A stretch of DNA of 43,602 bases from a virus (IMGVR_UViG_2541047812_000007:1-43602), one strand, 5' to 3'. Shown: positions 3,362 through 41,667, counted from the first letter of the stretch. Notes: generated by a model from the letters alone, not told the origin. Numbers and translations: made by a program.

Positions 3362-3390
3362 CCCGCAAAATATTGCGGGCTTTTTTTTAA
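3362..3390 (+). terminator. Hairpin plus T-run at the tailspike 3' end
   Basis: CCCGCAA-aat-ATTGCGGG followed by TTTTTTTT on the plus strand; the minus-strand version has a weaker U-tract. Confidence 0.4.
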
Positions 3391-6300
3391 CGTTCTTCCA
3401 GAGACTGAATCCGCTCTTTTATCTTATCCATTTCTCTGCGCTGCCATGCCGCCTCGATATAGAATAAGAGATCAGGTCTGACCCCCCATCTAGATCCTGC
3501 TGGCGTTATTTCAACGCGCTCAATGATGTCTTCCATTACCATCACTGGATTATCATCCTCATCAACAATGATGCTCCCGTCATTATCAGTCAGCGGCATT
3601 TCCCTTTGGCCAGTAATGACGTCATCATATACTGCGGGATAATCGTCATAGCAAAGAAAGGCATAGCGGCATGTTGTGCTTTCTTCTTCCATGAGTCCGT
3701 GAGAAATAAGAACATCACGAAGTTGCTGCGCGATTACACCATGATGTATCCTCGCTCCTTCTTCCCCCTTTATAGCGACAGCGTTCAGCCATTTATAAGC
3801 GATATACCTGACGTCACCCCAGGCATCCAGCAATGCTTCGTCAGGAGAGACCGGCTCTGTCTTTAATGTTCCGTCACTGGTAACCACAGGATTGGAGCCA
3901 AGATAAACTGTCGAGAACCTGTTTCCCGGACCACCAAGAGCATTTACATTATCAAGATAAGGTTTAACATCTCCGTTCTCAAAAAGATGTTCGAGTGCGT
4001 TATATACCGCGCGACGTGGAGTACTGCTTCCGGAACCATGCAACGTTATCATTGCACCATCTGCTGAAGACGTTGTTTCACCGCCGCTAACGATTAATCT
4101 CTGAGCGGTAACATCATCAGACGGTACTTTCTTCGCAATAATGGCGTAATTACCCTCAAGTTTGACTTCCGCGCGAACTTGTCCTGATGTACCTGCATGG
4201 ACAGTCAGTGACTGGACGGCAACATCATCTGTGAAATCAACGGGTACAGGAACCGTCCTCACGCCTGACGTCGACATAAAAGTAGGAAGCGTTCTGTTAG
4301 GAGTGGCTCCGTAGACAAAATCCCTTGAAACAAATTCTTCCTGTTTAATTTTCACCCTGAAACAATACAAATCAGCCGGGTGACCATCGTGAACATAAGG
4401 ATATTTTCTGTTGTTATCCCCTATGCTCCATGGGTTTAGAAAGTCTTCCCCACCGAAAATGTAGTACAGCCAGTTGTCTTTGATACAAACTGAACCAACA
4501 CCAACCGCAGAGTTAACTATTCCGCCCTGATAAATCTGATCAGTAACATTAACCCACTCTACATTATCCAGACTCCACTCATTGACGTTAACTCTGGTCA
4601 TAAATGTTCTTGGATAATTTCCTGCATAACGGTTATCAGGTTCTCCTCCTTCCCACTCACCAAATGCGCGCTCACTGCCAAAAATAATCAGCTCATCGCC
4701 AACTTTGGCAAAAGGAAGGTTTGAGTGATGAACATTATTTGGGAAGCGAAGAGAATTCCATGATGTACCTAAATCAGAGCTTCTGTGCAATGAACTACCG
4801 GGTTGAGTACTTAATGTCCCCCTGGTCGTCAGATACAGAATGCCATCATAATATTTTACACATGGCTCAGATGCATTCGCCTCATATTCTGCAGGTATGC
4901 GTCTGCGAACAAAGCTACCAGGAGAACCGAAAGCATCAGAGAAATAGAGTATCCCAAGCTCGCGTGGACCAATATCACCATTATGGTAGCCAACAGCAAA
5001 ACTGTTATCGCTAATCGTCGCAAAACTGTGAATCTCAGTAACAGGAGTGCTTCCGTCAACAAAAGAAGGAATAGTTCCAAGACTGGTTTTTCTCCATGGT
5101 GACGAGTGAAATGATGTACCAAAACTCCAGTATCTACCCTCGTTATTCTGATCCACATCCTGGGTATTTTGCGTCGTAACTGTAAAAGTATTTTTATCAA
5201 TAACAGTAGTCACCGTCATATTCCCGGTAACACCTGTAACACCAGAGTTTGAGAAGTTGACAAAATCACCAGCAAATAATCCGTGATCAGTAATGCGAAT
5301 ATAAGCGACTTGCTGATTTGCTGCTTTCGTTATACCACCATAAACGCGAAGGCTGCGACTCATTGGGCGATCCCACAACTCTGCAACCTGCAGTTTATTT
5401 CCTCTCACGGTCCGCGTCTCAATTACAGCAAAAAGGCGATTTCTGACAACCCCCATACTCATGCAGTGATAGTTAACTGTGGGATAGTTTTCATGTAAAT
5501 CTGTAAGCCATTCCGGCGTTGTCCAGGTCTTCCCGTCATCTCCTGAGCGAACCCATGCAACATGGAGGTTATTTACACCATGGCGGTCTCCAGCCATAAA
5601 AGGCGCATAGATGACATTGTCATATACAAACGTTTTATCCTGCGTCCAGGCGTTGTACCACGGTGTATCTGTAATTTTAAATAACTCTCCCTGGATAAAA
5701 TCTTCAGAAGCATAAAAAAGAGGCTGGCCCGGTATTCTCTCAAATAAAAAACGAGCATTTTTAAATCGACTGACATCCGGAAGAGTTGATACTTTAAAAG
5801 TAAGCCCTAATCCGTCAATTTTATAACCTGGAGATGAGGCTTCAAGGCACGCGCTTATTGCAGTGGAATCGTCATTTATACCATCACCAACAGCTCCAAA
5901 ATCTTTGGGGCTAATAGCATCACGCATTTTATCCTGGAACGTTCGGTACACAGCCCCAGAACCATACTGAATAAACCAACCAAAACCACCAACAACCCCG
6001 GCGATTGCAGCATCGACATAATTACGCATTGAGCGATTATTTACAGCGTCCTGCTCAAATGATGGATCTGCAAGGTTAGAAATTTTGTTTTGCTTTGCAT
6101 CGTAATATTTTGCAAGCAAAGATGGTTTCATCAATGCACGTCTGAACCACCCAAAACATTGCTGGATCAGCATCGTCAGGTAGTCAAAGGCATCTTCATG
6201 CACTTCGGGGAAAAATTTTCCCTGATTGCGAAGGTCTGTCTCCTGCACTACATCAAGCACACGATCTATCGTAATTCGCCATCCAGTAGCAAGCGGAGAC

Positions 6301-6506
6301 GGAAGAACCACAGAACCGCCACTATAAGTGCCCGCCCCAGTTACCGTATAACCGGTATCCAGAACCAATTCTGTTACGTTTCCGTTCAGGTCAGACACCT
6401 GAACAACCAGGTCTGATTTTCTGAAAATTCGAAAAGTATACGGAAACGATGTCGTAACGCCGTTACCGGTGTATTCGTTGTGGTCAACTTCGGTTGAGAC
6501 CGTCAT
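3387..6506 (-). CDS. Tailspike/tail fibre: T7 gp17-like N-terminal domain, sialidase-like Asp-box domain, C-terminal intramolecular chaperone-like domain
   Basis: N-terminus resembles T7 tail-fibre N-domain (YTGNGVTTSFPYTF..RKSDLVV); two Asp-boxes SGDDGKTW (nt ~5523-5546) and SSDLGTSW (nt ~4758-4781); last ~160 aa resemble the autoproteolytic chaperone domain of endosialidase-type tailspikes. SD GGAG before ATG. Confidence 0.8.
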   Translation of the reverse strand: MTVSTEVDHNEYTGNGVTTSFPYTFRIFRKSDLVVQVSDLNGNVTELVLDTGYTVTGAGTYSGGSVVLPSPLATGWRITIDRVLDVVQETDLRNQGKFFPEVHEDAFDYLTMLIQQCFGWFRRALMKPSLLAKYYDAKQNKISNLADPSFEQDAVNNRSMRNYVDAAIAGVVGGFGWFIQYGSGAVYRTFQDKMRDAISPKDFGAVGDGINDDSTAISACLEASSPGYKIDGLGLTFKVSTLPDVSRFKNARFLFERIPGQPLFYASEDFIQGELFKITDTPWYNAWTQDKTFVYDNVIYAPFMAGDRHGVNNLHVAWVRSGDDGKTWTTPEWLTDLHENYPTVNYHCMSMGVVRNRLFAVIETRTVRGNKLQVAELWDRPMSRSLRVYGGITKAANQQVAYIRITDHGLFAGDFVNFSNSGVTGVTGNMTVTTVIDKNTFTVTTQNTQDVDQNNEGRYWSFGTSFHSSPWRKTSLGTIPSFVDGSTPVTEIHSFATISDNSFAVGYHNGDIGPRELGILYFSDAFGSPGSFVRRRIPAEYEANASEPCVKYYDGILYLTTRGTLSTQPGSSLHRSSDLGTSWNSLRFPNNVHHSNLPFAKVGDELIIFGSERAFGEWEGGEPDNRYAGNYPRTFMTRVNVNEWSLDNVEWVNVTDQIYQGGIVNSAVGVGSVCIKDNWLYYIFGGEDFLNPWSIGDNNRKYPYVHDGHPADLYCFRVKIKQEEFVSRDFVYGATPNRTLPTFMSTSGVRTVPVPVDFTDDVAVQSLTVHAGTSGQVRAEVKLEGNYAIIAKKVPSDDVTAQRLIVSGGETTSSADGAMITLHGSGSSTPRRAVYNALEHLFENGDVKPYLDNVNALGGPGNRFSTVYLGSNPVVTSDGTLKTEPVSPDEALLDAWGDVRYIAYKWLNAVAIKGEEGARIHHGVIAQQLRDVLISHGLMEEESTTCRYAFLCYDDYPAVYDDVITGQREMPLTDNDGSIIVDEDDNPVMVMEDIIERVEITPAGSRWGVRPDLLFYIEAAWQRREMDKIKERIQSLEER

Positions 6507-7005: not shown

Positions 7006-7118
7006 ATTTACATCGCACTCCTCTTGTGCCATAGTAATCGGGCACTGGCAAAATCCAGTGCCGGGATTGGCGTCCCGGATTACTAAAAGGCGCATTCACC
7101 GCGCAAGCGGTTTTTTTA
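6998..7118 (+). ncRNA. Candidate small RNA or terminated leader (about 120 nt)
   Basis: Runs from the predicted promoter to an intrinsic terminator (ACCGC-gcaa-GCGGT plus T7 at 7098-7118); contains nested GC-rich hairpins; the overlapping ORFs have no SD and poor context. Confidence 0.3.
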
Positions 7119-7274
7119 TGCGTATAGCACGGCCACATTCGTATTATGGTGGGCTGTGTGGGGGCACCGAAAGGTGCGCCGGGTCCTTTTAGCCGGTTAC
7201 GCCAACCCTGCACAGTTCACCACCAACCGATTGGCGTCGGTAGTGGTGATTAACCAGACTAAAAGGTAACCACT

Positions 7275-10026: not shown

Positions 10027-10098
10027 GTCGTTAATTCCTATACGTAGTTTTACGATACTGAAGCCCTGACGGTCTGGCCACCGTGGGGCTTCGCTGTT

Positions 10099-11483: not shown

Positions 11484-14400
11484 TCACCGCATCACCGGAT
11501 CCACTTGGTTTATTAGTGGCGCAATCCAGAACAGGTTATTGCCGGGTATCAGGGTTCGGACATTATGCACAATACGATCACCGGCATCACCATTCAACAC
11601 TCCTGAGGTCACATCAATGATGCTATCCGCAAGACCAAATGACGGTCCGAATAGAGATCCTACGAATCCACGACTGGCATACCTGGACTGTGTGCCAGTG
11701 CCAAATAAAGCCCCCAGCCCAACAGCACCACCAGTCGCCTTTTCAGCCATGTTGTTATATTCCATCAATGGCCCAAGAATACCGGATCTATCTATACCCT
11801 CAAGCACCAGCTTCTCTGGTGACCAGTCAACATTTTTCCCTTTCGATGCTTCTTTAAGCGCATAGACCAGTGAGCCAAGAGCAATCTGAAATGCAGTGCC
11901 ATAATAAAATTGCGCAGTTCCTTCCTGTAACCCACCAAGTAGCGCACGGTTGTATGAAGCCGTTGTGAATGATTTAAACTGAAATATCGTTCGCCCCATT
12001 GGAGTACTCGCCCATAAAGGTGTGTCACCAATACCGGGGGTGATGATAGTGTTATTAACGTCTTTCAGAACCGCTGACTGGAATACTCCGGCAACGTACT
12101 GATCGTCCCATTTATCAAAGTTACCAATGTGCCATCCATCAATTACCTCACCATGTTTCTCGAACTCACTGCGAATACGCGCAGCCATATTGTCGTTGAT
12201 ACCGAGTTTTGCCATGCGACGTGCAGAAAACGCACCAGACAAAATACCGTCTGACGTGAGCATTCCGTTCATGGATTTGTTTATGTCATTAAATCGATCC
12301 ATGAGTGTCAGCTTGCCGAAGGCATCAGTAATTCGCTCCATTCCTGCTTCGACTGCTGTTGTCCTGGAAGAACTGTCAACAAGATCACCAATTGCACGAG
12401 AACGTGAATGTAGTACAGTTTCCAATCCAATCCCCATCTTCAACATCTCTTCTTTGCTGGCCTTAAATGCCGGTGATTGGGATATCTGAGAAGCATAGCC
12501 TTTCATGGAGTTACGGAAACCATTAACCATAACCCCTCTGGCCAGATCTGGAATAGCTGATACTGTCATTCCACCGAGTTTGGTCGTGAAGTTCACATCC
12601 CGCAGAAAAGCGCCAGCACGAACAAAAAACGAAGACGGGTCATCAGGCATACCATATGTACCAACAAGACGATCGCGTAATGCTGTTATGTCTCTGAGAT
12701 CATTTGCTCTTGATTTTGAAAGTCTGGACTGTTCTTTCCGTAATTCCTTTTCGTACTTTCGCATTAATGAATCGAGTTTACCCTGAGGAACAACTTCACC
12801 ATTGCTCTCATAACGTGCTTTCAGATTTGCCACACTTTCGTCATATTTCGCCTTTATTTTTTCAGGCACTTCCCGTAACAGACTGTCATATTCGTCCTCA
12901 ATTAATTGCAGACGCTCTGTCATAGTTCGTTTGCCAAATGTTCTCGTCAACTCAATTTCTGCTGCCGCTTCACGGATATGACGTTGTAGAACGTAATTCA
13001 CATCACTTTCGAGATAATCCCTGATAAGACTATCAGGCACATTTAATGTTCTTTCTTTCGTACTACCTGCGGCTTTTACAGAAAATACGCTGACAAAATC
13101 CTGTGGAACCTTAGCACCAGTAATTTTATTAATTACGATATCCGCTGCAATTTCAGCATCCTCAGGATCCAGTGTTTTATTGCCTCTCGACCACCAGTCA
13201 ACCAAAATACGTCGAAATTTATCGCGTTCACTGATTATTTTTCCAACTTTATATATACGTGGGAAATAGCTTGCCTGGCCTAATGCTTTCAGTTCTTCAT
13301 CTGGCGGCAATAAACCAAGCTTTTGCATTTCAACCTTCACCCGATTTAATACAGTTCGCATCGCCTGCGCCGTTTCCTGAACAACAGGATTAGCATGCAC
13401 ATCACCGCTTCGCATAGCATTCCCAACCTGCTGACGAAATGAATCAAAACTCATGTCACCACCATCAGCTTTATACTTTGCGTATGCCTGTTTATTTCCG
13501 ACAACAACAGCAGCTTCTTCACGCTGCCATCCACGTGTACGGGTTTCTACAGCTACCGGTGTTTCAATCCCCCTTTCATTTCCTTTAAGGGTGAAATTAT
13601 TTTCGGCTAACTCCAGCGTTGTTTTTCGCACTGTCTTGGACGGAGACTCCATTAACCTTGTCAAAGGAGTAAGATAGCTCCCTGCTTTCCATGCAGCCTT
13701 TCCAACCACCCCACCGGAAACAGGGGTTAAATCATCCAGAGTCGCTGTATCAATTTTCATAGCACCAACACTACCACCATCAGAAAGCGAAGCGGCAGCC
13801 CTGTCAGTCGCTGATGTAATGCTCATATTATCAAGAGCATCAGCAACCTCACGCGTGGCTGCAGCCCGGACGGATGGCGAAAGCGCAACACCAGCACTGG
13901 CAAACACGCCGCTCATCATCGCACCCGCTGCAATGTGAGCGGCACTTTCACCCCATGAGCGTGTTATTTGCTGATTATTCAGCACAACCTCGCTTAATGC
14001 TGTACCGGCTGCACCAATCGCAATCTGTGAGCCAATACGCGCCAGTGCCCCTCCTTGAGCACCGGGGATAAACATTGACGCAACAGTAACCGGATCCATT
14101 CCCGCAGCAATACTGGCAAGGGTTCCAACTACGCCAGCATCAGACAATAAACGTCTGTCTTCATTTTCATCATCTATCTGCTGCTTAATCCACGCCGTTT
14201 CCTCTGGCGATCGGGAATCTGCAAATTTCGCCCCCCAGTATTCATAACCGTGCAACTCATTTTTATCAGCATATGGGTTATAACCTTCGACCGGTTCAAA
14301 CTGTCTGGCTGGTCGGAAAAAACCAGCCAGAATATTGTTCTGTCGCATTGCAGCCCCCCATACGGAAGGCTCCGGTGGCAATGGCTCAGGATTAGCCCCT

Positions 14401-14498
14401 TCCGGAAGGGCAACATCAAACCCAGTTTGTTCCGGCAAAACATTACCTGACGGGATCAGTCCGTTATTAAGATCTTCAGCTTGTGCATAAACTGGCAT
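11484..14498 (-). CDS. Large internal virion/ejection protein (1004 aa)
   Basis: Long ORF in the virion operon downstream of the transglycosylase protein; size and position like podovirus internal core proteins. Confidence 0.65.
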   Translation of the reverse strand: MPVYAQAEDLNNGLIPSGNVLPEQTGFDVALPEGANPEPLPPEPSVWGAAMRQNNILAGFFRPARQFEPVEGYNPYADKNELHGYEYWGAKFADSRSPEETAWIKQQIDDENEDRRLLSDAGVVGTLASIAAGMDPVTVASMFIPGAQGGALARIGSQIAIGAAGTALSEVVLNNQQITRSWGESAAHIAAGAMMSGVFASAGVALSPSVRAAATREVADALDNMSITSATDRAAASLSDGGSVGAMKIDTATLDDLTPVSGGVVGKAAWKAGSYLTPLTRLMESPSKTVRKTTLELAENNFTLKGNERGIETPVAVETRTRGWQREEAAVVVGNKQAYAKYKADGGDMSFDSFRQQVGNAMRSGDVHANPVVQETAQAMRTVLNRVKVEMQKLGLLPPDEELKALGQASYFPRIYKVGKIISERDKFRRILVDWWSRGNKTLDPEDAEIAADIVINKITGAKVPQDFVSVFSVKAAGSTKERTLNVPDSLIRDYLESDVNYVLQRHIREAAAEIELTRTFGKRTMTERLQLIEDEYDSLLREVPEKIKAKYDESVANLKARYESNGEVVPQGKLDSLMRKYEKELRKEQSRLSKSRANDLRDITALRDRLVGTYGMPDDPSSFFVRAGAFLRDVNFTTKLGGMTVSAIPDLARGVMVNGFRNSMKGYASQISQSPAFKASKEEMLKMGIGLETVLHSRSRAIGDLVDSSSRTTAVEAGMERITDAFGKLTLMDRFNDINKSMNGMLTSDGILSGAFSARRMAKLGINDNMAARIRSEFEKHGEVIDGWHIGNFDKWDDQYVAGVFQSAVLKDVNNTIITPGIGDTPLWASTPMGRTIFQFKSFTTASYNRALLGGLQEGTAQFYYGTAFQIALGSLVYALKEASKGKNVDWSPEKLVLEGIDRSGILGPLMEYNNMAEKATGGAVGLGALFGTGTQSRYASRGFVGSLFGPSFGLADSIIDVTSGVLNGDAGDRIVHNVRTLIPGNNLFWIAPLINQVDPVMR

Positions 14499-17215
14499 TA
14501 TTTAGATCCCCACGAAAAGTAATCTTTAAATTTGTCCATACGTTCGTTATGCAGGCGCTGATACTGCTCATCCAGAGCGCGATGCTTGTCTTTGAAGTTT
14601 CGTATAGCCTGTCCACGCATAATTTCTTCCTGCTCGTACTGCTCCCGTTCCTGCTGCATTTTCTTATAAGGTTCCCAATCTTCTAGTGATGGTTCCCAAC
14701 GCATAGGACGCCCATGTTTGTTATAAAACGGCTGGACCCGATCGATGCCATTTTCATCCTTAGTTCTTACCATAATGGCGTAATCACCATTACGAGGTGT
14801 TAACACGTCAGGGGTTATGAATAATTCTCCATTAATACGACTCTCAGGGGTTTTTGTCTCAACTACAGGAGCATTACCTGACGTGATCCCAAGCAACGTC
14901 GGACTGGTTGTTATAATCTCTTTGCGCTCACCGTACATCAGCCGTTCTTTTTCAGCTTTCCACTGCGCCGCCTGCCAGCCTGACGGCCCATATTGATAAA
15001 GCGCCTCCGGTGCATATTTCATAAACTGCGCTTCTCCGTTAACCTCGCTGATACTCCAGGTGCGGGCTATCTGCTGGTTGGTCATTTGCTTCGCTACGTC
15101 AGCGTTACCACCAGCAACGCGGTAGTTAATGTCATACAGCGTCTGATAGTCATTACGGAATCTAGCTGCTTCCGGCGTCTGGTCATCCGCAGACGGATCC
15201 CAACGGAACCACTGCGCCATATTGCTGACAGCAGAATTCATCGCCTTGCTGCGATTATTTTTGTACTCTTTTGAACTCTGCGTTGATGCCAATTGAGCTT
15301 TAAGAGCATCGGTCTGGTTGTACGTCAGGTTCTGCGCCTGCTCGATAGCCGCATCAGCAGACATGCCAGAATCTGTTAGTTGCTTAACAGTCAGATAAAA
15401 ACCCTGCATATCCTTCGGCATATTTCCAATAGATGCATTGTCTGTTTCATATAACCGACTAAACAAATTCGCTGCATTTTTAACCACTTCCTGATTGCTG
15501 GATCTGGATACTGCTGAAAGCTGCGTGATGACCTGCGAAGGCATGATGCCAGTCTGAGCCACAAGCCGAACAACCCCATCATGAGTGGAGGCATCATTAA
15601 TACGAAAGTTCTGCGCCATTTCTGTGTAATCAGCAGCTTTCTGCATTGATTTGTTGCTTGGGTCTAATTTTTCACCTATTGTCAGCGCCTCATTGAATCT
15701 GCGTGAATCACGTTGCGCCTGAATTGCTTCATTTGATCGCTGAAGCAATGCAGACAATTTTCCGTAAGCATCGAGTTTTAACGCATAGTGAGGATCGTTA
15801 ACCTCAGGCTTCACTTTCTGCATTTCTTCTTGCTGCTGAGAAGGAGGTAAATACTGAATTGCCTGGAATATTCTCGCGTTATCAATCGCTATATCCAGTT
15901 GATTGATTATTTTATCTGCATTTTTTCCATACCCCCTGATGATAGTCTCCTGAGCCGGTATATAATCTGGAACCTCACCGTTATATAGCTGGGCCATGGT
16001 GTTATTAATAGCTGGCTCAAGCTGTTCTAATATTAACTTCCTTTGCTTTTCTATCTGACTATTAGCAAGGTTATCTATTTGATAAATAGTCAGCGGATCC
16101 ATTCCAGTTTTATTTTTTCTATATCGGGAAAGCCACCCTTGTGTTTCTGATGGAAGATTTCGGATAAATTCTTCTTCTGATATTTCACCTTTACGTGGAT
16201 CACCGACTTTGGCGATCAGTTTATCCACGTTACCCATCCCCCAGTTATATGCTGCTCCGGTCAATATTTCGGAGCCGTACTTACCATACAGTTGATTTAC
16301 ATAGTCACTGGCGAGCATTTCATGCTGTTGTTCGTCCGTAGGGTTGTATTTAACGCCACGCTTGGCCGCCAGTTCTTTCCCTGTGCCCGGCATTAACTGG
16401 TATTTCCCCTGGGCTCTCTCTCCAGAAGATGTTATCGGTCCTTCAAGAAGACTACCATCAGGATTAAAATGTCGATCACCTGATTCAACAAGGCGTATGG
16501 CACGCATGTCCATGCCTCCAGAATCATTTTTCTGAAACAGACCATTTAGCCATCCTTCTGGATTGGCAGCGGCATAATTCTTCGCCCGCATTTCTGTGGC
16601 ACGGCGATCATCACTTTCTATTTCTTCCAGAATGCGTTCTTGTGACCATCCCCTGGCAGCTCCATATCTAGCAATGGCTACCATTCTGGAATTTCTGGCT
16701 AAAGTGGCAGTTTGCGGGTCATTCCAGGCATCCGCTTCATTTTGTATCCATAATTTTCTCGTTGCCTGATATTGCTCATCTTCATAGGCATTTGTCTGCC
16801 CTATCTCATGTCTGAGAACTCCAGTACTGAACTGAATTTTCTGTGTTCTGGCTTGTTGCAAAAACATATTTCTTGCTGCTTCATCAGTCAATGAAGCAGC
16901 TATTTCTTCCACATCCTGATCAAATCCAGATATGTACTCTTGCCCCTTACCAATCGCATTTTTGCCTTGTTGTGCATAAAAACCGGTTTGAGGGTTATAA
17001 AGACGTTCATTGCTGCGCTGATTAAGCTGAAGGATGGCATCCTGAGACAATGCAACATTCGCTTTCTGCCTGGCTTCACCATATGCCACCGCATACTGAT
17101 CTGCGACATTCGCCAGCACCTGACCTGCTTGAGGAACATCGAAGATCTGAAAACCACCGGTTTGCACACCACGACTTTGCACCTGGCGTCCGGATGTAGT
17201 AGGAACAACAGGCAT
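14498..17215 (-). CDS. Internal virion protein with lytic transglycosylase (SLT) domain
   Basis: SLT motifs LVESGD, AQGKYQLMPGT and AAYNWGMGNV at aa ~235-335 (nt ~16211-16515). Confidence 0.8.
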   Translation of the reverse strand: MPVVPTTSGRQVQSRGVQTGGFQIFDVPQAGQVLANVADQYAVAYGEARQKANVALSQDAILQLNQRSNERLYNPQTGFYAQQGKNAIGKGQEYISGFDQDVEEIAASLTDEAARNMFLQQARTQKIQFSTGVLRHEIGQTNAYEDEQYQATRKLWIQNEADAWNDPQTATLARNSRMVAIARYGAARGWSQERILEEIESDDRRATEMRAKNYAAANPEGWLNGLFQKNDSGGMDMRAIRLVESGDRHFNPDGSLLEGPITSSGERAQGKYQLMPGTGKELAAKRGVKYNPTDEQQHEMLASDYVNQLYGKYGSEILTGAAYNWGMGNVDKLIAKVGDPRKGEISEEEFIRNLPSETQGWLSRYRKNKTGMDPLTIYQIDNLANSQIEKQRKLILEQLEPAINNTMAQLYNGEVPDYIPAQETIIRGYGKNADKIINQLDIAIDNARIFQAIQYLPPSQQQEEMQKVKPEVNDPHYALKLDAYGKLSALLQRSNEAIQAQRDSRRFNEALTIGEKLDPSNKSMQKAADYTEMAQNFRINDASTHDGVVRLVAQTGIMPSQVITQLSAVSRSSNQEVVKNAANLFSRLYETDNASIGNMPKDMQGFYLTVKQLTDSGMSADAAIEQAQNLTYNQTDALKAQLASTQSSKEYKNNRSKAMNSAVSNMAQWFRWDPSADDQTPEAARFRNDYQTLYDINYRVAGGNADVAKQMTNQQIARTWSISEVNGEAQFMKYAPEALYQYGPSGWQAAQWKAEKERLMYGERKEIITTSPTLLGITSGNAPVVETKTPESRINGELFITPDVLTPRNGDYAIMVRTKDENGIDRVQPFYNKHGRPMRWEPSLEDWEPYKKMQQEREQYEQEEIMRGQAIRNFKDKHRALDEQYQRLHNERMDKFKDYFSWGSK

Positions 17216-22221: not shown

Positions 22222-23208
22222 TTACACCACGCGGGCTTCTGTTTCCAGAAGCGCATCAGTTTCACGGATTGGTACACCACGGAATGAAGTCCACCACTCG
22301 CCTTCAGTCTCTTTTACGCTGATAGCCAGAGATGTTTTCTCCAGAGACTGCAGATCAAGAGCCTGGCCTACAGTGCGGTTCATGTAGAACACCGGGCGGC
22401 CCATGCCACGGTTTGGAATGCGATGTAGTGCTTTAACCATCAACTTCGCAATATTTGCGGCAGAGGAAGGTTCTGAAAGATTGCTGACATCGATATTTGC
22501 AATGCGAACAACATAACGCCAGTCACGCAGAGAAAGTCCGTTATCCCATTTGTAATGGGTACGATAGCCTTCGTACTTGCCGCCATTAGCATCTTCCAGT
22601 GTCACCTGGCCTTTATCTTCCATCTGGATGCCAGCCTTCTGCCCTTTCGGGAAGATGCCATGCACGGTGTTTTCGCCCCACACCACTAACCAGATTGAGG
22701 TGTTATCTGTACCCGTGCCACCAGCATCAATGATGTTCTGAGCATTACCCGCAGACAGGCTGGAATAGCGGGAGGACAGTCCCATAAACTGCTGAGGGTT
22801 AACGCTGGAATCACCATAAAACAGCGTCTGCGCCATCTGCTGATTCATCGCTTCAATAAATGCGCGGTCTTCAGACAGGCGGAATTCGGCGGTATTGCCG
22901 TTCAGATCAGCCAGTGACTTATCGACTTCAGCATAGGTTTCCAACATACCAATGGAATCGGTGACCTGCACTGTGGTTGATTTGCTTGGTTGTACACCAT
23001 AGTTCAACAAACGCCAGGTAGCTGAAGGTAAACCAGAACGAATGGTGGTTTTGTGTCCGGTAGGAAGGTTCCCTTCGACAAAAGGCATATCCTGAAGGAT
23101 CGGGTTAGTTTGACCGAGAAGCTCGATAATCTTATCGACTTTCCCATCTTTATCGACGCGCTTACCCCAGTCAGCCAGCGTTAGCGCAGTTAAGCCTTTA
23201 ACAGCCAT
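22222..23208 (-). CDS. Major capsid protein
   Basis: 328 aa directly downstream of scaffold and portal in the canonical order. Confidence 0.8.
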   Translation of the reverse strand: MAVKGLTALTLADWGKRVDKDGKVDKIIELLGQTNPILQDMPFVEGNLPTGHKTTIRSGLPSATWRLLNYGVQPSKSTTVQVTDSIGMLETYAEVDKSLADLNGNTAEFRLSEDRAFIEAMNQQMAQTLFYGDSSVNPQQFMGLSSRYSSLSAGNAQNIIDAGGTGTDNTSIWLVVWGENTVHGIFPKGQKAGIQMEDKGQVTLEDANGGKYEGYRTHYKWDNGLSLRDWRYVVRIANIDVSNLSEPSSAANIAKLMVKALHRIPNRGMGRPVFYMNRTVGQALDLQSLEKTSLAISVKETEGEWWTSFRGVPIRETDALLETEARVV

Positions 23209-23924: not shown

Positions 23925-24217
23925 TCCTGTTCACTGGCCTCTTTGGCCATCTTCAAATACTGTTCAGGGCAATGCGCCATAACGCGCTGAAACAGTTCCA
24001 GCGCCAGATTGCGTTGCCCCTCATTAAATGCCATTGCCATAGCGTCCATCGGTGAGATAGCGGAAAACACACGGCCTTTCTCCAGCACCGACCAGACAAC
24101 GCGACGCCCCTGTTCACTGCTCATGACAAAGCGAATGTCATCAATTTCACGCTGCGCCATGTCACGTTGCTTACGGGCGTTTTCTTCTTTCAGTTGATCG
24201 TCTTCGTAATCTGTCAT
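23921..24217 (-). CDS. Hypothetical protein (98 aa) between portal and scaffold
   Basis: ORF with 4-nt overlaps on both sides. Confidence 0.5.
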   Translation of the reverse strand: MTDYEDDQLKEENARKQRDMAQREIDDIRFVMSSEQGRRVVWSVLEKGRVFSAISPMDAMAMAFNEGQRNLALELFQRVMAHCPEQYLKMAKEASEQE

Positions 24218-25893
24218 TGTGATTGCCCACCCTGACCACTAACTGCATTCGCCATAGCTGACAACACACTCGGATCCGAAGTTTTAGCTTCGCTTAGCGT
24301 CTTGGCCCCCTGTGCCGCCGCCATCCCCATCGCCATCATTTGTTGCTGCTGTTGCTGCTGTGCCCGTTGCTGGCGAGCCTGCTCAACCTGTTCCTGCGGA
24401 ACAATGACGGTTGGAGACACTCCGGACATATCAGCGAATGCATCGATCGCCTGATCAACGTTGAGTTTGTCGAGAGCTTCTGGTTTCGCTTGCGCAAGTT
24501 GACCAATGAAGTTAACCGTGGACGCCAGACTGGACAGGCCGATAGACTTCTGCGCCTGAGCCATGACGGAAATGTATTCGACCTTCAGGGGCATACCTTC
24601 CATCACGTCTGGCGGTGGCGGCAGCATGTTTTTACGCACCATCATCGAGAAAGAGCGGTCAATGAGAGGATTAAGACATTCGTCGTTCAGACGCTCCAGA
24701 ACCGGCCCCAACATCAGAAGTTTTTCTTCTTTCATTTCGATCACCGCTTCAACAGGCATCGAGCGGGTATTGATGTTCTGCAACATCATGAACAGATCGA
24801 CAAAGTAGGCGCTGTTAATGATTTGACGAGTGTCCTGAATGTCTGCCACCAAATCTGCTGTACTGGGGTTAACCAGATAAGCAGGCCTGAAACCATCCTG
24901 ACCAGTAATCTGATCGATATACGTGATGTCGCCAGGAAGAAGGGAGGCACGCTGATTCTTGAGGGAAGTCGGAGCAACCATCGGCGGATTGGTGGCTTTA
25001 TCAATCAACTGCGACTTGCGCTTCTGGAGAAGCTGCAATGCCTTAACAGGTCCAAGCGCCAGCATACCCGGGCATGATGATCCATAAACATCTTCGCCGT
25101 TAACTTCCCAGCGCGGAGCCATAATTGGAAACTCATCGAATCCGGACTCACGCAACAACTTGTCGTTATCGCCACAAACCTCGTAATAAACCGATTTGAA
25201 TGGCTTGTTCTTGCTATCCAGCTTCGATGTATCGCGGTCAATGTTCGGGTAAACCGAATGCATCACTTCAATCCACTTCTCGTAGGTTCCGCTTTCCCAC
25301 ATGCTTTTTACGGATTCGCTGACGTTATTTAGCCCGAACTCCTGAACAAGCTGACGAACAGTCATAGAGAACTTGCGAAAACAGGTGTCCACACTGCCAC
25401 GAGGTGAGTTAGCCAGGTAGTAACTGCCTATCGGGAATGGCATTGTGCGAATGATGTCCTCGTCATCCTCCAGCACCGCCATTGCACCAGTGCTGTATGT
25501 GCCGAGGCTTCCGTATAACTGCGGCAGCGACTGATAGAGATTCGACTTATTGAACATATCGTTCATGCGGTTCTGCACCGCCTCAAGCCACAACTTAACA
25601 GGGCCATAATCCATCATTTCAGGATCTGGCGTAGCCAGGCGAAACCACGGACGCGCGGGGCTTGTGATGCCTGACATCATGCCGCTGGCGAGAGTGCGCG
25701 CCGCCATAGTCCCGGTCGAATCAATAATGCGTGTATTGCGTCGATCGTTACGGTTGACCTCAGAAGTCAGAAAGCGGGAACCACGCGGGTTGATGTAATC
25801 ACTCAACTCGCGCCAGTGCGGCTCGAACGACTGACGCTCGCTTTCAAATTGTGCGAACTGTTTGTTCAATCGCTCTTTAGTTGTTTCCGCCAT
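24214..25893 (-). CDS. Portal protein, podovirus type
   Basis: 559 aa; Gln/Ala/Met-rich C-terminal tail like T7-type connectors; located between terminase and scaffold. Confidence 0.85.
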   Translation of the reverse strand: MAETTKERLNKQFAQFESERQSFEPHWRELSDYINPRGSRFLTSEVNRNDRRNTRIIDSTGTMAARTLASGMMSGITSPARPWFRLATPDPEMMDYGPVKLWLEAVQNRMNDMFNKSNLYQSLPQLYGSLGTYSTGAMAVLEDDEDIIRTMPFPIGSYYLANSPRGSVDTCFRKFSMTVRQLVQEFGLNNVSESVKSMWESGTYEKWIEVMHSVYPNIDRDTSKLDSKNKPFKSVYYEVCGDNDKLLRESGFDEFPIMAPRWEVNGEDVYGSSCPGMLALGPVKALQLLQKRKSQLIDKATNPPMVAPTSLKNQRASLLPGDITYIDQITGQDGFRPAYLVNPSTADLVADIQDTRQIINSAYFVDLFMMLQNINTRSMPVEAVIEMKEEKLLMLGPVLERLNDECLNPLIDRSFSMMVRKNMLPPPPDVMEGMPLKVEYISVMAQAQKSIGLSSLASTVNFIGQLAQAKPEALDKLNVDQAIDAFADMSGVSPTVIVPQEQVEQARQQRAQQQQQQQMMAMGMAAAQGAKTLSEAKTSDPSVLSAMANAVSGQGGQSQ

Positions 25894-25907: not shown

Positions 25908-26114
25908 TTACTGACCAAGCAGCGTTTTACCGCTGGTATTAGCAGTTGATGTGTCGCCCTGAGAACCGGTAAGCAGCGTAGAACTACGACCAGCAGCAAC
26001 GCGACGGCGACGAGTTTCTTCGTCGCGGGCATCAACAACGGCGGCATCCTGCTCCTGTGGTGCTGCCTGAACTTCTGGTGTTGCAGGCACTGATGGTGAG
26101 CTACCCATGCACAT
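25908..26114 (-). CDS. Small low-complexity protein upstream of portal
   Basis: 68 aa with SD GGAG; could be non-coding. Confidence 0.35.
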   Translation of the reverse strand: MCMGSSPSVPATPEVQAAPQEQDAAVVDARDEETRRRRVAAGRSSTLLTGSQGDTSTANTSGKTLLGQ

Positions 26115-26204
26115 ATCAATGACTCCGTACGCAATTAAATTATTACCAATTTAACCACATATGATTTATTTATCGTAGACAGTTGACATTTAACGCGCGA
26201 ATTA

Positions 26205-26219
26205 TTACCTTTCAGGTAA
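26205..26219. promoter_or_regulatory. Palindromic operator-like site TTACCTTTCAGGTAA
   Basis: Identical to the 6611 site; 16 bp downstream of a TTGACA hexamer. Confidence 0.4.
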
Positions 26220-26541
26220 CCAAAGAGTTCATTCCGGTTACTAACCTGACTGGCTTGTCGTTAAATTGAACAGGTGGAGTGAGCTTTTATTTTGAGCAGT
26301 ACGGCGTATGGCACATGCGCCGATAGCGGTCTGGATGCGTTTAAGGGGCACCCTCCCTGGCTGTGGCAAACGAACCAGGTAGCCGGAATGTGCAAGTCGA
26401 GCGGTTTTATTCCGCGCACGGGGATTCACCATCCCGGCGATTCGGTGTGACGCCTCGGAAGAGACGAGGGTACAACGATGAGAGCATTTATGGAGCCGCG
26501 ACAAAGTGTGGCGCCTTAACAGGCTAAGTGCTCTCAGCGTT

Positions 26542-26618
26542 GTGGCATTAGCTCAGTTGGACAGAGCAACCGCCTTCTAAGCGGTTGGTCGCAGGTTCGA
26601 ATCCTGCATGCCACGCCA
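26542..26618 (+). tRNA. tRNA-Arg, anticodon UCU (reads AGA)
   Basis: 77-nt cloverleaf folded by hand: acceptor GTGGCAT/ATGCCAC, D-arm GCTC/GAGC, anticodon stem ACCGC/GCGGT with loop CTTCTAA, T-arm GCAGG-TTCGAAT-CCTGC, discriminator G, encoded CCA. Confidence 0.9.
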
Positions 26619-26787
26619 GAATCACGCCTAAGGACCGTGATGCCAGAAGTTCCAGGTGCTTGGCGGTGATGGTTTCCCTTGAAGGACTATCACCGCCCTT
26701 GCCCTTTTTACAGCAGGACGCCATTGCGATGACTTCATGCTGTAAACCAGTACAGCCACGGAAGGCATAACTCATTGCTTCCAGTTC

Positions 26788-26811
26788 GCCCGGTTCGCCG
26801 GGCATTTTTTT
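26788..26811 (+). terminator. Rho-independent terminator downstream of the tRNA
   Basis: GCCCGG-ttcg-CCGGGC followed by ATTTTTTT; a second hairpin with U-tract lies at 26662-26710. Confidence 0.7.
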
Positions 26812-26822
26812 AAGGTGAGATT

Positions 26823-27197
26823 ATGAACGACCAGCAAATCGAAAAAGAAATCGTTGAGAAAGGTAAAACGGCACCTCGTGTAACTCCTGAGAAAATTGAA
26901 GGTCTCATTTGCAGTGAGCATTTTTTTACTGCTGCGCAGGGGGATCATCAGGCTAAAGAAGATGACCTTATTTATAATCCAGAGCCTTATGTCGAAGCCA
27001 CCCCTGATGCTCTGCACCTTCTCACTTTCTGCGTCCTGGTGCTGCGCAACGGCTTCACCGTCACCGGAGAGAGCGCCTGTGCAAGCCCGGAAAACTTTGA
27101 TGCAGAAATTGGTCGGAAGATTGCCCGACAGAATGCTGTAAACAAAATCTGGATGCTTGAAGGTTACTTGCTGAAGCAGAAGTTAAGCGAGCAATAA
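26823..27197 (+). CDS. Hypothetical phage protein (124 aa), part of the plus-strand island
   Basis: SD AAGGTGAG before ATG; followed by a terminator; family not confidently recognised (possibly Gp49-like). Confidence 0.65.
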   Translation: MNDQQIEKEIVEKGKTAPRVTPEKIEGLICSEHFFTAAQGDHQAKEDDLIYNPEPYVEATPDALHLLTFCVLVLRNGFTVTGESACASPENFDAEIGRKIARQNAVNKIWMLEGYLLKQKLSEQ

Positions 27198-27217
27198 CAC
27201 CGTGACATATCACAAAC

Positions 27218-27245
27218 AGCCAGCCTATGAGCTGGCTTTGTTTTA
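27218..27245. terminator. Bidirectional hairpin between the island gene and terL
   Basis: AGCCAGC-ctatga-GCTGGCT with T-rich tracts on both sides. Confidence 0.5.
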
Positions 27246-27287
27246 TCCTCATCAGAGGATATCAACAACATTATCCCCTCAAGCGGA

Positions 27288-28763
27288 TTAAGCATAGGGA
27301 TCGTAATCTGTGATGGCCTTGCCTTGCTGGTTCTGCTGCCCGGGAATTCGCAGACGCTTAGACACAGGGAACGCAAACGTCAGCAGTAGCGCATCGCCTT
27401 TACCCGGTGAACGCCCAAGCCGCTCCTTGATATCTTCCTTCGGTTCGATAACGATTTTACCGTCCACTCGAACTTTGTACTCTGCCGCCGACAGGTCGTC
27501 TGCTGTTTCCTGGTCATCCAGCATGCCGCCCAGCCTCAGCCATGTCTTGCATGAATTGAACATCTCCCCACGCTTGTTGAGCATCTGCGGGTCAGTAGAC
27601 GCGCCACCGAACGGAACAAGTTGCCATGTACGACCCCAGCCGTCACCGATTGACTTCAAACCGGTTCCGTAACCGAAGTCGATGAACACCGCGTCAGCCT
27701 GATACTGGTCTTCAAAGTCAGCGATACGCTTCGCCATAATCAGATCGTCGGTAGTCTTGTTGCCAGTCCACAGCACCTTACTGTGTAGCCCCTGCCGCAG
27801 GTATATCACAGCGTCATCAACGCCGGAGTATGCCGGGTCAACGCCGATTATCACCGGAGCATGTGCAACCTGCGCAGCGGTTACCACCCGTTTCATTGCC
27901 TCGTCAGTAAGACCGGTAGGGATAAACTGCAATTCAGATGCATCAGGGAATATGCCACGCACACGGATTTTAACGAAGTCGCTGTCTTCCCCGTAGTCAT
28001 CAACCCATTTCTGCAACTGCTGTTTGTTAGTGCCTTCCACCGTCCGGCTGTCAATCTGCGCAGTTTTCCAGCGGTGTTTATATTTGCGGAAACATTCGCG
28101 AAAACGCCCGGTGTTACGTGTAGGGTTTCCGAACGCCACCCAAATAATCTCAGTGTCTTCGTCCGTAAGCGCACCCTCGGCAACTTCCCACACCAGATCC
28201 GCAATGTTCGACGCTTCATCAAACACCACGATGATGCGTTTGCGCTCGTTGTGTAGTCCGGCGAATGCCTCGGTGTTGTGCTCAGACCAGGGTATTGCGT
28301 CAGCCCGCCACCGCTTGTCGTGCCCTAGGTCATTGCTGTACATCGCGGTAGCGGTACAGGTAAACCAGTCTTTCGTGATAGCAAGGTTCGACCACTTGAT
28401 AATTTCCGGCCAGGTCTTCGTTCGTAGCTGGTTGTCGGTGTTGGCGGTCACCACGACCTTACAATCCTCGCAAGTGGACATGCCCCAGTTGATCAGCATT
28501 GAGATGAATGCGGATTTACCAATACCGTGACCAGAAGCGCGTGCCAGCATAAGCGGCTGATAGCGCGTCTCTGGATTCTGCAGGTGATCACGTATCTCTC
28601 GGAACGCATCAGCCTGCCACTGACGTGGGCCGGTGGCATGTGCCAGTTCAGTCCCCTCTTCCCCCCATGGGAACGCATAGAGGGCATAGCCAAGCGGATC
28701 GTGAGTGAACCCTGCAATATCCTCGATTAACTGCTCTTCAGGAGATAACGCTGTATCTGTCAC
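27288..28763 (-). CDS. terL: Terminase large subunit
   Basis: 491 aa with Walker A-like ASGHGIGKSAF; GTG start overlapping the terS stop (GTGA). Confidence 0.9.
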   Translation of the reverse strand: MTDTALSPEEQLIEDIAGFTHDPLGYALYAFPWGEEGTELAHATGPRQWQADAFREIRDHLQNPETRYQPLMLARASGHGIGKSAFISMLINWGMSTCEDCKVVVTANTDNQLRTKTWPEIIKWSNLAITKDWFTCTATAMYSNDLGHDKRWRADAIPWSEHNTEAFAGLHNERKRIIVVFDEASNIADLVWEVAEGALTDEDTEIIWVAFGNPTRNTGRFRECFRKYKHRWKTAQIDSRTVEGTNKQQLQKWVDDYGEDSDFVKIRVRGIFPDASELQFIPTGLTDEAMKRVVTAAQVAHAPVIIGVDPAYSGVDDAVIYLRQGLHSKVLWTGNKTTDDLIMAKRIADFEDQYQADAVFIDFGYGTGLKSIGDGWGRTWQLVPFGGASTDPQMLNKRGEMFNSCKTWLRLGGMLDDQETADDLSAAEYKVRVDGKIVIEPKEDIKERLGRSPGKGDALLLTFAFPVSKRLRIPGQQNQQGKAITDYDPYA

Positions 28764-29356
28764 TGATTGCCATCCTGACGTTCTTTCAGTCTCTTCCTGG
28801 CTGCCGCTATGCGATCAGCAATTGTCACATTCACATTAACATCCAGGCGTTCTTTGAATGCGTTGACGTCGACGTGCTTACCAATCAGTTCGAGGTTCTT
28901 CACCTTGTCAGGCCATTTAATTTTTTTGAGGATTGTCTCTATCGAATCCTCGTTCATGTTCATGATGGTCGATGACAGATCAAAGCCACTAAGCGTAGTG
29001 CGCCAGATTTTCGGCCACTCGCGGATTGGCTTAAGGCTCCCATCGTCGTTGAGGATGTCGATCACGTCCATCTGGTCGATCTCCACCAGGCGCATGAGAA
29101 CGTAATCAGCACTGACGCGCATTCGTTTGTTGCGCTCTTCCATCAGCTCGGCAATCCGTTTTTGAATGCGTTCATCGCGCATCATGAGACTGGCTTTAAC
29201 TGCCGCTGTATTTGGGGAGAATCCTGCGTTAATCGCAGCCTGAGTCTGGTTTTCAGGCGTTTGGATGTATGACTGGCAATAAGCCTCCTGCATTGCTGTT
29301 AGTGGCTTAAATTGCGTTGATTTGCGTTTATAGGTTTTAGGTTCAGCAGGCATCAT
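28760..29356 (-). CDS. terS: Terminase small subunit
   Basis: N-terminal pattern LTAMQEAYCQSYIQTPENQTQAAINAGFS typical of small terminase HTH; start set at ATG 29356 rather than the TTG ORF-track start at 29434. Confidence 0.7.
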   Translation of the reverse strand: MMPAEPKTYKRKSTQFKPLTAMQEAYCQSYIQTPENQTQAAINAGFSPNTAAVKASLMMRDERIQKRIAELMEERNKRMRVSADYVLMRLVEIDQMDVIDILNDDGSLKPIREWPKIWRTTLSGFDLSSTIMNMNEDSIETILKKIKWPDKVKNLELIGKHVDVNAFKERLDVNVNVTIADRIAAARKRLKERQDGNQ

Positions 29357-29363
29357 AACCACC

Positions 29364-29395
29364 GTGGTAATAGTTACCGTTGTGGTAATAGTACC
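29364..29395. repeat. Tandem direct repeat GTGGTAATAGT(T)ACC x2 just upstream of terS
   Basis: Two copies (29364-29378, 29382-29395); core CCACCGTGG at 29359-29367. Confidence 0.5.
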
Positions 29396-29430
29396 ATGCA
29401 AAATAAAGCCGCCATAGTTGGCGGCAGTAT

Positions 29431-29643
29431 TCAAAGTCCATCAAATTCATCGTAAAAACTCTCGTCAAGATACCCTTCCCATTTACCGCGAATGAAAATT
29501 ACATCCTCGCCGCAAGGGTGCTGACTGTCGATAACTATATCCCTCCTGGCGCAACCATACTTATGCATGAGAAATTTAACCTCTTTCGGAAAATTTGCTG
29601 AGTTATCTCTCATATCTTCAAGGTCGTAGCGTATTTTTGGCAT
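29431..29643 (-). CDS. Hypothetical small protein
   Basis: ORF with ambiguous start (GTG 29664 or ATG 29643). Confidence 0.4.
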   Translation of the reverse strand: MPKIRYDLEDMRDNSANFPKEVKFLMHKYGCARRDIVIDSQHPCGEDVIFIRGKWEGYLDESFYDEFDGL

Positions 29644-31695: not shown

Positions 31696-32288
31696 TACTC
31701 ACCTCCTTTGATGCGAATGCCAGCGGTGCGTGGCACATTAACTTCCACGATGCGCACAGTTGGTTTGTACATCTCAATCGCTGTCAGCCAGTCAGCGCCA
31801 GTCATGCGCTTTTCTGCATCGCCATTAGTCCAATTAACCGGTACACCAATAGCCTTCATCGCGATTTCTATTTCCCCGGCAATGGCGCTTTTTCCGCAAC
31901 CAGTAAAACCAGATACAACGACCAGAACTTCACCTTTGGCTGGTTTTATTTCCCGCGCTTCCAGTTCTGCTATGCGCTTACTTCCATCCGAGATAACACC
32001 TTCGTAATACTCACGCTGCTCGTTGAGTTTTGATTTTGTCTCCTCAAGCTCAACTCTCAGCTTCCCTACCGTTAGCGCAATATCCTCGTTCTCCTGGTCG
32101 CGGCGTTTGATGTATTGCTGGTTTCTTTCCAGTTCATCCAGCAGTGCCAGCGCGATATCTGGCGAAAAGTGCTTCATAAAATCGTTAAGCGCATTAATTC
32201 GCTGATCGAAGGGCATTACAGGTGCTTCACCAGCAATTTTTGTTTTTTCAGCGATTTCACGAAGCTTTTGATAATCAATCTTGCTCAC
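31695..32288 (-). CDS. Hypothetical coiled-coil protein (197 aa)
   Basis: Coiled-coil middle section; possibly Ead/Ea22-like, not verifiable here. Confidence 0.55.
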   Translation of the reverse strand: MSKIDYQKLREIAEKTKIAGEAPVMPFDQRINALNDFMKHFSPDIALALLDELERNQQYIKRRDQENEDIALTVGKLRVELEETKSKLNEQREYYEGVISDGSKRIAELEAREIKPAKGEVLVVVSGFTGCGKSAIAGEIEIAMKAIGVPVNWTNGDAEKRMTGADWLTAIEMYKPTVRIVEVNVPRTAGIRIKGGE

Positions 32289-41343: not shown

Positions 41344-41667
41344 AATCACGCCTGACGAATCGCGATTATCTCGCTATTGGTATTGCAGAGATTGCTGGAC
41401 TCAATGGCGCATGATTTGACAATGCCGCCAGAGCTATCGCATACTGACCGCACTAGAAAACAAACAGCGGTCATCCGCACCCGATAGCTTTGCGGCTTTT
41501 TTATGCCTGCAATCTGGCATAGTCACATCCGTACAAAGGTCGGGTGGAGAGGCGTAATACAACACCCGAAAGGGGAATATGCCCGGAGCTACTGTTTGTG
41601 CTCTAGTTGACACCCGATCACCAGCTACTAACTGGTTTTCGTAACTAAAAACAAACAGGAGGTCATC

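Follow-up and report, generated by a model that had tools for sequence, protein, structure and literature searches.

Phages are known to encode several kinds of structured RNA. The put sequences of phage HK022 (putL and putR) mediate processive antitermination by RNA only, via the zinc-binding domain of the RNA polymerase β′ subunit. GOLLD and ROOL are large orphan structured prophage RNAs that are often located beside tRNA genes. In phage T4, species 1 and 2 (rnaC and rnaD) are small stable RNAs of unknown function, which are co-transcribed with tRNAs and cut out by tRNA-processing enzymes. Few genomes are as thoroughly annotated as those of E. coli, the lambdoid phages and P1, yet the RNA described here is unannotated in them or called a small 'hypothetical protein'.

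The DNA analysed (IMGVR_UViG_2541047812_000007:1-43602; 43,602 nt, referred to as the window) is, on the basis of its ORF map and Pfam matches, a phiV10/epsilon15-like podovirus (Uetakevirus) prophage. The genes terS (28760-29434), terL (27288-28763), a gp3-like gene coding for 68 aa (25908-26114), portal (24214-25893; Pfam Head-tail_con) and major capsid GP7 (22222-23208) are on the minus strand, and a plus-strand island lies between terL and gp3/portal. A sequence-only reading had described this island as an insertion that interrupts the virion operon. The parts it named (an operator palindrome, a structured region, a tRNA-Arg, terminators and a 124-aa ORF) are all present, but the island is not a one-off: the same plus-strand slot was found in all Uetakevirus examined (phiV10, typing phages 9/10, ZX5, TL-2011b, SPN1S and epsilon15). 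Megablast matches to 26100-27290 at 94-98% identity were obtained with phiV10, O157 typing phages 9/10, ZX5, TL-2011b and others. A comparison with related phages lacking the island had also been proposed; the slot is kept in all those examined and only its content varies, epsilon15 being without the tRNA and without most of the structured RNA. The slot is already partly annotated in GenBank. We conclude that the plus-strand island as such is a known, genus-wide conserved feature, and that the tRNA-Arg, the terminators, the dispersed operators and the gp49/66 ORF are of known kinds; all of these are ordinary. A consensus promoter scan returned no minus-strand promoter for portal. The novelty appears to lie in the RNA encoded at 26302-26541, which by the tests run is a member of neither put, GOLLD/ROOL, a riboswitch nor any other Rfam family.

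The G+C content of 26300-26500 is 59%, versus 37.5% in the promoter region, and the fold is more stable than that of shuffled sequences, both over 26215-26545 (z=-2.9) and over 26470-26545 (z=-6.0). An additional non-coding RNA had been guessed to lie in this ~300-nt region, and homologues and covariation strongly bear out that guess. Homologues of 26302-26541 with 70-98% identity are present in lambdoid phages, in P1/P7/D6, and in Klebsiella and Enterobacter phages. By blastn, 26301-26545 is ~81% identical in the unrelated lambdoids cdtI, mEp460, 2H10, Ayreon and the Stx2c, Stx2a and Stx2k phages; the first 165 nt of the element are matched with ~79% identity in P1, P7, D6, SJ46 and RCS47; and parts of it also occur in Klebsiella, Enterobacter and 'Stenotrophomonas' phages. 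About a third of complete E. coli genomes (1840 of 5426) carry the element, at 1920 chromosomal and 554 plasmid places. Its invariant 19-mer GGTAGCCGGAATGTGCAAG is carried by at least 120 IMG/VR contigs, representing 108 distinct variants. When a stricter three-block pattern was applied to a one-genome-per-species collection, 23 DNA stretches matched, all from Enterobacteriaceae or Erwiniaceae with the exception of one short MAG contig. Among the matches listed, each phage record has a single place, and nhmmer found one copy in the window. The family is shared by podo-, sipho- and myoviruses, and no protein neighbour is conserved.

No Rfam 15 family was matched by the plus strand of 26302-26541 (window searched at the gathering threshold; 26050-27300 searched permissively, with E up to 10), and five other members of the RNA family gave no Rfam match to the element at E up to 0.5. 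The annotations at the element were 'none' or 'hypothetical protein', once 'RNaseIII' (epsilon15) or an edge-overlapping tRNA-Arg, and never the RNA in question. The invariant core sequence, searched as DNA, RNA and reverse complement, was found in no open-access full text, and no description of the element was found in open-access text or Rfam 15, although one may stand elsewhere. On these comparisons, the 26302-26541 RNA is a member of a large, widespread and previously unannotated phage RNA family. Like GOLLD/ROOL, its members are orphan, phage-borne RNAs with a complex fold and frequent tRNA neighbours, but the element is far smaller, is confined to phages of Enterobacterales and has no Rfam match to either. 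With T4 rnaC/rnaD it shares the status of an orphan phage RNA beside tRNAs; however, the phage type is unrelated, no homology is evident, and movement between families of phages is not known for the T4 RNAs.

The fold was read and counted on 44 non-redundant sequences less than 90% identical (alignment A2); the alignment was seeded by an exact motif, and hence divergence inside that motif would go unseen. The predicted core (26302-26469, plus strand) consists of four helices, P1 (26302-07:26317-22), P2 (26331-34:26375-78), P3 (26421-24:26432-35) and P4 (26453-57:26465-69), and two pseudoknots, PK1 (26311-16:26388-93) and PK2 (26427-30:26444-47), and contains an invariant strand of 19 nt, GGUAGCCGGAAUGUGCAAG (26378-26396). 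In the 44 sequences, 96.5% of the core cells were paired, versus 26-49% after the partners were slid, and compensatory double changes were observed at 14 of the 29 core pairs (92 cells). None of 500 shuffles attained any of the four measures; this control overstates significance because the aligned sequences are related, a problem from which the slid-partner control is free. Helices P1, P2, P3 and P4 have 3-4 covarying pairs each. For PK2 the figure is one (C-G replaced by A-U, both in the lambdoid copies and in one Kosakonia copy), and PK1 (GCACAU:AUGUGC) is invariant over the 44 sequences, so that the data agree with this pairing but do not prove it. RNAalifold, in which pseudoknots cannot be drawn, independently yielded PK1, P2, P3 and P4, as well as a long-range pairing that competes with helix P1. 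G-U pairs are frequent (at one pair of helix P1, 22 GU versus 17 GC), and therefore only the plus strand fits the structure.

GenBank ORFs that overlap the element (mEp460 gp37, phiV10p04, and 'hypothetical proteins' in Tyrion and BUCT554) would be in keeping with a small protein gene on either strand. This explanation, or that of a DNA-level site that involves no RNA, is hardly credible. Stop codons interrupt every frame in at least 31 of the 44 representatives and none is open in more than 13, hence no conserved reading frame was found in the element and protein coding was rejected. Furthermore, the substitutions in the helices are compensatory, and include G-U pairs that are valid on one strand only. 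We conclude from the covariation that the element is a structured RNA.

The core is followed by P5, a long 3′ hairpin (26471-26544, plus strand; inverted repeat I1) of ~16 bp with one conserved mismatch and a variable insert, which in the window spans 26489-26526. P5 has an MFE of -37.4 kcal/mol (z=-6.0). In 36 distinct sequences 95.7% of the P5 cells were paired and 8 of 15 pairs were compensatory, counts that are favoured by the location of the 3′ strands by complementarity. The inserts measure 24-160 nt and fall into discrete unrelated types, some T-arm- or tRNA-like in shape. The closing pairs of P5 take in the first 3 nt of the tRNA-Arg, and the structured RNA adjoins nucleotide 1 of the tRNA (26541/26542). 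The junction, GUUGUGG/CAUUAGCUC, is identical in every tRNA-Arg-linked copy, regardless of the P5 insert.

Core and P5 are separable. The copies of phage P1 type consist of the core only, LLS and epsilon15 have a P5-type hairpin without the core, and the order in the window is a P5-type leader hairpin (26223-26288), the core and P5. What stands 3′ of P5 is the tRNA-Arg, a short covarying hairpin, or other modules; in other loci an RprA-like sRNA 3′ half with its terminator lies 3′ of the element (50 and 41 bits, E ~1e-3, below the Rfam gathering score of 70). Epsilon15 retains just helix P1 and the start of P2 of the core, a deletion read from BLAST and by eye, since a global MAFFT alignment with the window misplaces the middle. 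In LLS, where the core was expected and would have tied the element to the proposed put-like mechanism, it is entirely absent; the LLS CI is reported to be 89% identical to the CI of mEp460_4F5, a phage that itself falls outside those compared. Since the close relatives epsilon15 and LLS are without the core, this is an accessory, mobile and dispensable module. The sequence-only reading had called the region a structured leader. It is structured, but is an independent module rather than a tRNA leader, and is also found where there is no tRNA at all.

It could be argued that the element is a mere precursor scaffold or processing cassette, with RNase III and RNase P sites, that serves the adjoining tRNA or sRNA modules: it abuts tRNAs in two arrangements, and the epsilon15 homologue of the leader hairpin is annotated as an RNase III site. 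We give this explanation little credence. Over half of the copies lack a tRNA in the neighbouring 1.5 kb, the epsilon15-type phages retain the hairpin and not the core, and the constraint (an invariant strand of 19 nt, two pseudoknots, and compensatory changes spread over more than 100 variants) far exceeds what such a cassette needs.

Upstream of the leader hairpin, a sigma-70-type promoter candidate was located at 26183-26211 on the plus strand (-35 TTGACA at 26183-26188, 17-nt spacer, -10 TACCTT at 26206-26211), from which transcription would start near 26218-26220. Its -35 and flank are conserved in epsilon15. A consensus scan prefers an overlapping, weaker pair, TAGACA/AATTAT; the TTGACA-17-TACCTT candidate is presumed to be active. 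The -10 is overlapped by a repressor operator palindrome, TTACCTTTCAGGTAA (26205-26219, both strands). With up to 2 mismatches, the motif TTACCT-N3-AGGTAA has 14 copies in the window versus 0.93 expected (0 of 100 shuffles), and these are concentrated in regulatory regions. The epsilon15 annotation marks the counterpart of the 26205 operator as a site of repressor binding and places an IHF site beside it. The arrangement is reminiscent of the dispersed operators of P1, in that a scattered 15-bp palindrome (14 copies) covers the promoter of the RNA operon as C1 operators do over Pban, but the operator sequence of the window differs. The P5-type leader hairpin (plus strand; MFE -22.9 kcal/mol, z=-2.0) is homologous to the epsilon15 hairpin mentioned above, and its sequence is similar to that of the epsilon15 leader and also to P5 hairpins found in LLS and at the L120-type loci; this homology was judged by eye and is weaker than that of the core.

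Downstream of the tRNA-Arg, a strong hairpin at 26662-26697 (about -23 kcal/mol in a custom scan; inverted repeat I4) is followed by a 7-nt gap and a U5 run, making 26662-26709 of the plus strand a non-canonical terminator candidate. Next is an sRNA-like 3′ module (26707-26811, plus strand) with hairpins at 26707-26746 and ~26760-26782 and an intrinsic terminator (stem-loop 26788-26803, 6-bp all-GC stem and UUCG loop, then U7, to 26811). This module is conserved in epsilon15 with a compensatory terminator stem (GCCCGG/CCGGGC versus GCCCAC/GUGGGC), and against Rfam it gave chance-level matches only (RyhB, E=2.2). Its end lies 12 nt from the start of the 124-aa ORF (26823-27197, plus strand), which belongs to the N4 gp49/Sf6 gp66 family (Pfam PF13876 Phage_gp49_66; E=1.8e-34, 118.5 bits versus a cut-off of 27, the full profile 1-82 being covered) and to PHROG 322, listed there with unknown function. 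Between the ORF and terL, a bidirectional terminator-like hairpin (27218-27237, both strands) has z=-4.5 on each strand; its counterpart in the phiV10 record is annotated as a putative rho-independent terminator.

The context of the element in other phages was then considered. In mEp460, the terminator of cI, two 15-bp palindromes that match the cI-cro operator, and a promoter precede the element, which begins about 25-40 nt after the promoter flanked by both palindromes. Because cI terminator, operators and promoter directly precede it, the element would be the first feature of the mEp460 PL transcript. A strong terminator follows ~190 nt past it, and then the early-left operon yfdP-yfdQ-...-xis. 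Of the 141 loci, 63 have a gene for one cI-type repressor as their upstream neighbour on the same strand; a second S24/HTH repressor was found in the group of loci denoted L014. In P1, P7 and D6 the element is located directly after a tRNA-Ile and before ban; in P1, where the element belongs to the C1-controlled ban operon, this tRNA and the start of the core are 14 nt apart. The 3′ neighbours vary wholly by context (tRNA, RprA-like module, ban, a Tad2-like gene, yfdP). Neighbours sampled with Pfam and PHROGs, from representatives of the largest clusters, comprised repressors, SieB, Tad2-like proteins, yfdP/Q and virion genes; no RT, as would adjoin a retron RNA, and no TnpB, as would adjoin an omega RNA, was among them. 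Where the promoter is readable or annotated (Uetakevirus, mEp460-type lambdoids, P1), the element thus appears to sit in a repressor-controlled early transcript. The first transcript after loss of the repressor is the usual phage site for host-takeover and counter-defence functions, and it is also where an RNA replacing N would be expected in N-less lambdoids.

By its position, the element is reminiscent of put. Both are phage-encoded structured RNAs, and the lambdoid copies of the element lie just after PL, in phages without N, ahead of terminators. An N gene was neither annotated nor found in mEp460 or 2H10, PHROGs show no antiterminator, and gp35/yfdP, considered as an N-like protein, was discarded as it is not arginine-rich. 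A nut-like reading was likewise set aside: the P5 3′ strand contains a boxA-like string, UGCUCUUU, followed by a covarying hairpin, GCGC-AGGCUGAU-GCGC, but that string is sequestered within a covarying helix, and there is no N. By contrast with the element, which has 170-240 nt, five helices, two pseudoknots and one copy, put has ~70 nt, two stem-loops and two copies (at PL and PR); the element also occurs in phage P1 and in podoviruses, and the P1 copy is away from the promoter. Homology to put was rejected, since no HK022 is present among the 60 listed of 104 matching phage records and putL (L154 4330-4240) is unrelated.

The element, or P5, might nevertheless be a cis-acting, put-like antiterminator that binds its own RNA polymerase and passes the terminators before the first ORFs. 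It has been reported that put remains polymerase-bound even when untethered (PMC9378689). In the lambdoid copies the element comes first after PL/OL, the strong terminator is next, and the entire early-left operon then follows with no N gene. A strong terminator-like hairpin is present within 500 nt downstream in 98 of 118 distinct contexts, and in the window the 124-aa ORF begins 12 nt past the U7 terminator. P5-type hairpins are found where terminators follow (LLS, epsilon15, mEp460 and the window) and are lacking in phage P1, which has no terminators at that place; the odds ratio for this contingency is ~5, but it is confounded by phylogeny, and the P5 detector misses some types. However, in LLS a comparable early-left operon and a terminator are present without any core, which weakens the antitermination idea for the core, and epsilon15 retains terminator and ORF after the loss of its core. 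The put-like placement, just past an early promoter in an N-less lambdoid, is that of mEp460 and not that of phage P1, in which 2.3 kb separate the copy from its promoter and ban is not preceded by a strong terminator. Among the phage matches listed, and in the window by nhmmer, there is no second copy that could be the analogue of putR. In Uetakevirus, read-through would gain only the 124-aa ORF before entering terL in antisense, and neither the sequence nor the size resembles put. We therefore regard antitermination as rather unlikely, though as the main rival to our preferred reading, and give it better chances for the P5 hairpin than for the core.

An invariant unpaired core with a variable periphery is the usual conservation pattern of aptamers. 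The element has a compact core with two pseudoknots, long invariant single-stranded stretches and variable peripheral hairpins, and the RNAalifold pairing that competes with helix P1 could be a switch. It might then be a ligand-sensing RNA, namely a riboswitch aptamer or a 'sponge', whose core would hold some small molecule, for instance a second messenger of nucleotide type, in a pocket; the RNA would either regulate genes downstream or titrate this ligand. One variant that resembles the phage P1 copy has a Tad2-like anti-Thoeris gene next downstream, but this neighbour is confined to a single downstream-gene cluster of 5 loci. The downstream genes and 3′ modules otherwise differ wholly by context, unlike the fixed regulon of a riboswitch, no expression platform directly overlaps the core, and no Rfam riboswitch was matched. 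On balance, we consider ligand sensing to be unlikely.

Our preferred reading, which we hold tentatively and with somewhat less than even confidence, is that the plus-strand segment forms an early 'RNA operon' under repressor control, yielding a trans-acting accessory RNA that is freed by RNase P. A single precursor would be transcribed on induction or infection, and RNase P would cut at 26541/26542, freeing the tRNA and leaving a structured RNA that ends in a protective P5. The tRNA-Arg would supplement AGA decoding in the tail genes. The freed RNA would act in trans as an accessory early factor, and some conserved component of the host would be the binding partner of its invariant pseudoknotted core; the putative targets that we prefer are the transcription/termination machinery, or a tRNA-directed defence or processing enzyme. 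A precedent for the processing step is MALAT1-mascRNA, in that a downstream tRNA would let RNase P set the 3′ end of a non-coding RNA that ends in a stabilising structure; this precedent is eukaryotic, however, and the window has a genuine tRNA whose processing is only inferred. Most lambdoid copies are without a tRNA, and therefore the 3′ end of their RNA would have to be made some other way.

Action in trans is a best guess from modularity and context. In its favour we count that the element is exchanged among podo-, sipho- and myoviruses irrespective of protein neighbours, that it is present in one and absent from another of close relatives, that it travels in arrays of other RNA modules, that tRNA ends mark its own ends in two independent arrangements, and that the invariant pseudoknotted core has the look of a surface for binding a host component. 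The position after PL in N-less lambdoids, ahead of strong terminators, would suit a role in cis at least as well. More speculatively, and with a probability that we judge to be rather low, the core could be a new functional RNA class traded by temperate enterobacterial phages as an early accessory weapon, either a decoy or sponge against a host defence or processing factor or, together with P5, a means of protein-independent antitermination, unrelated to put, in N-less lambdoids. The alignment, the structure and the natural presence/absence pairs (phiV10 versus epsilon15; mEp460 and 2H10 versus LLS) make the function directly testable.

The tRNA-Arg (26542-26618, plus strand; anticodon UCU, CCA encoded) of the sequence-only reading was called both by ARAGORN, as tRNA-Arg (tct), and by the Rfam covariance model for tRNA (RF00005; 73.3 bits versus a gathering score of 29). 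The same tRNA is annotated in O157 typing phages 9/10 and absent from the phiV10 RefSeq annotation. The att core reported for phiV10/epsilon15/ZX5 (PMC9782041) has a single occurrence in the window, at 1164-1180, and the tRNA-Arg is therefore not the attachment site, in agreement with what had been proposed. Compared with other phage tRNA-Arg(UCU) codon supplements, this is a canonical tRNA that reads AGA, with nothing unusual. The E. coli average for this codon is ~2 per 1000 codons. In keeping with a codon supplement, AGA accounts for 12.5% of the Arg codons of the prophage (7.7 per 1000 codons), and the AGA codons are concentrated in the tail and tailspike genes.

The 15-bp putative operator TTACCT-N3-AGGTAA occurs at 14 sites dispersed over the prophage, a scatter that resembles the pattern seen in phage P1. 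Perfect copies lie at window positions 6611, 26205 and 33396, and copies with one mismatch at 6991, 8041, 33458, 35360, 35745, 36457 and 36519. The copies at 6611, 6991 and 8041 flank a region (window 7042-7227, plus strand) in which Rfam matches to isrK (77.9 bits) and to the C4 antisense RNA (77.7 bits) stand side by side. This pair looks like an immI antirepressor control region of the P1/P7 type. Phage mEp460 also carries an isrK and C4 pair (L004, its locus in our comparison, 206-394).

In the P1 ban operon, where P1 carries its copy of the structured RNA core, a sub-threshold match to STnc100 (33 bits, E = 6e-4) was found between upl and tciA (P1 locus L006, 2058-2177, plus strand), and a dicF-like region is annotated at the same place in the P1 record. 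The P1 ban operon is rich in putative RNA modules. A P1-like IMG/VR contig (L043, 741-1317) has, directly 3′ of the RNA core and in place of ban, a gene for a Tad2-like (anti-Thoeris) protein (PF11195, E = 1e-9).

The PL leaders of lambdoid phages that lack N contain an RprA-like module, located in phage LLS (L156) at 31893-32029 on the minus strand and in locus L010 at 2131-2250 on the plus strand, and present also in loci L015, L042 and L120. Its 3′ half (AUUGCUGUGUGUAGUCUUUGCCC plus terminator) matches, almost base for base, the segment of the host sRNA RprA that comprises seed and terminator; the module's RprA hits score 41-50 bits, under the gathering score of 70, with E of about 1e-3. 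The PL-leader module may be a phage mimic of RprA.

Within the insert of P5, the long hairpin 3′ of the core, there is a 13-codon ORF (MRAFMEPRQSVAP; window 26479-26520, plus strand), which is retained in mEp460 with mostly silent changes. Since it lies inside a covarying helix and no clear Shine-Dalgarno sequence was found for it, this ORF is probably not translated. Immediately 3′ of P5, in mEp460 (L004, 2745-2770) and in many lambdoid copies, follows a short hairpin, GCGC-AGGCUGAU-GCGC, with the compensatory variants GCAC/GUGC and GCCC/GGGC. This hairpin is preceded, within the 3′ strand of P5, by a string that resembles boxA (UGCUCUUU); the layout is nut-like, but the N gene is absent.

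Megablast with the window tRNA-Arg (26542-26618) returned matches of 80-90% identity in 64 Synechococcus phage records, probably because tRNA-Arg(UCU) is conserved among phages. AGA codons cluster in minus-strand genes at window 3387-6506 and 11484-17215, which encode the tailspike (17 codons) and a pair of large proteins for tail or injection (24); the capsid, portal and terminase genes contain none.

Two further plus-strand Rfam matches in the window barely exceeded their thresholds: sar RNA (10028-10095; 44.8 versus 43) and sRNA-Xcc1 (41538-41627; 64.8 versus 53), the latter adjoining the integrase end.
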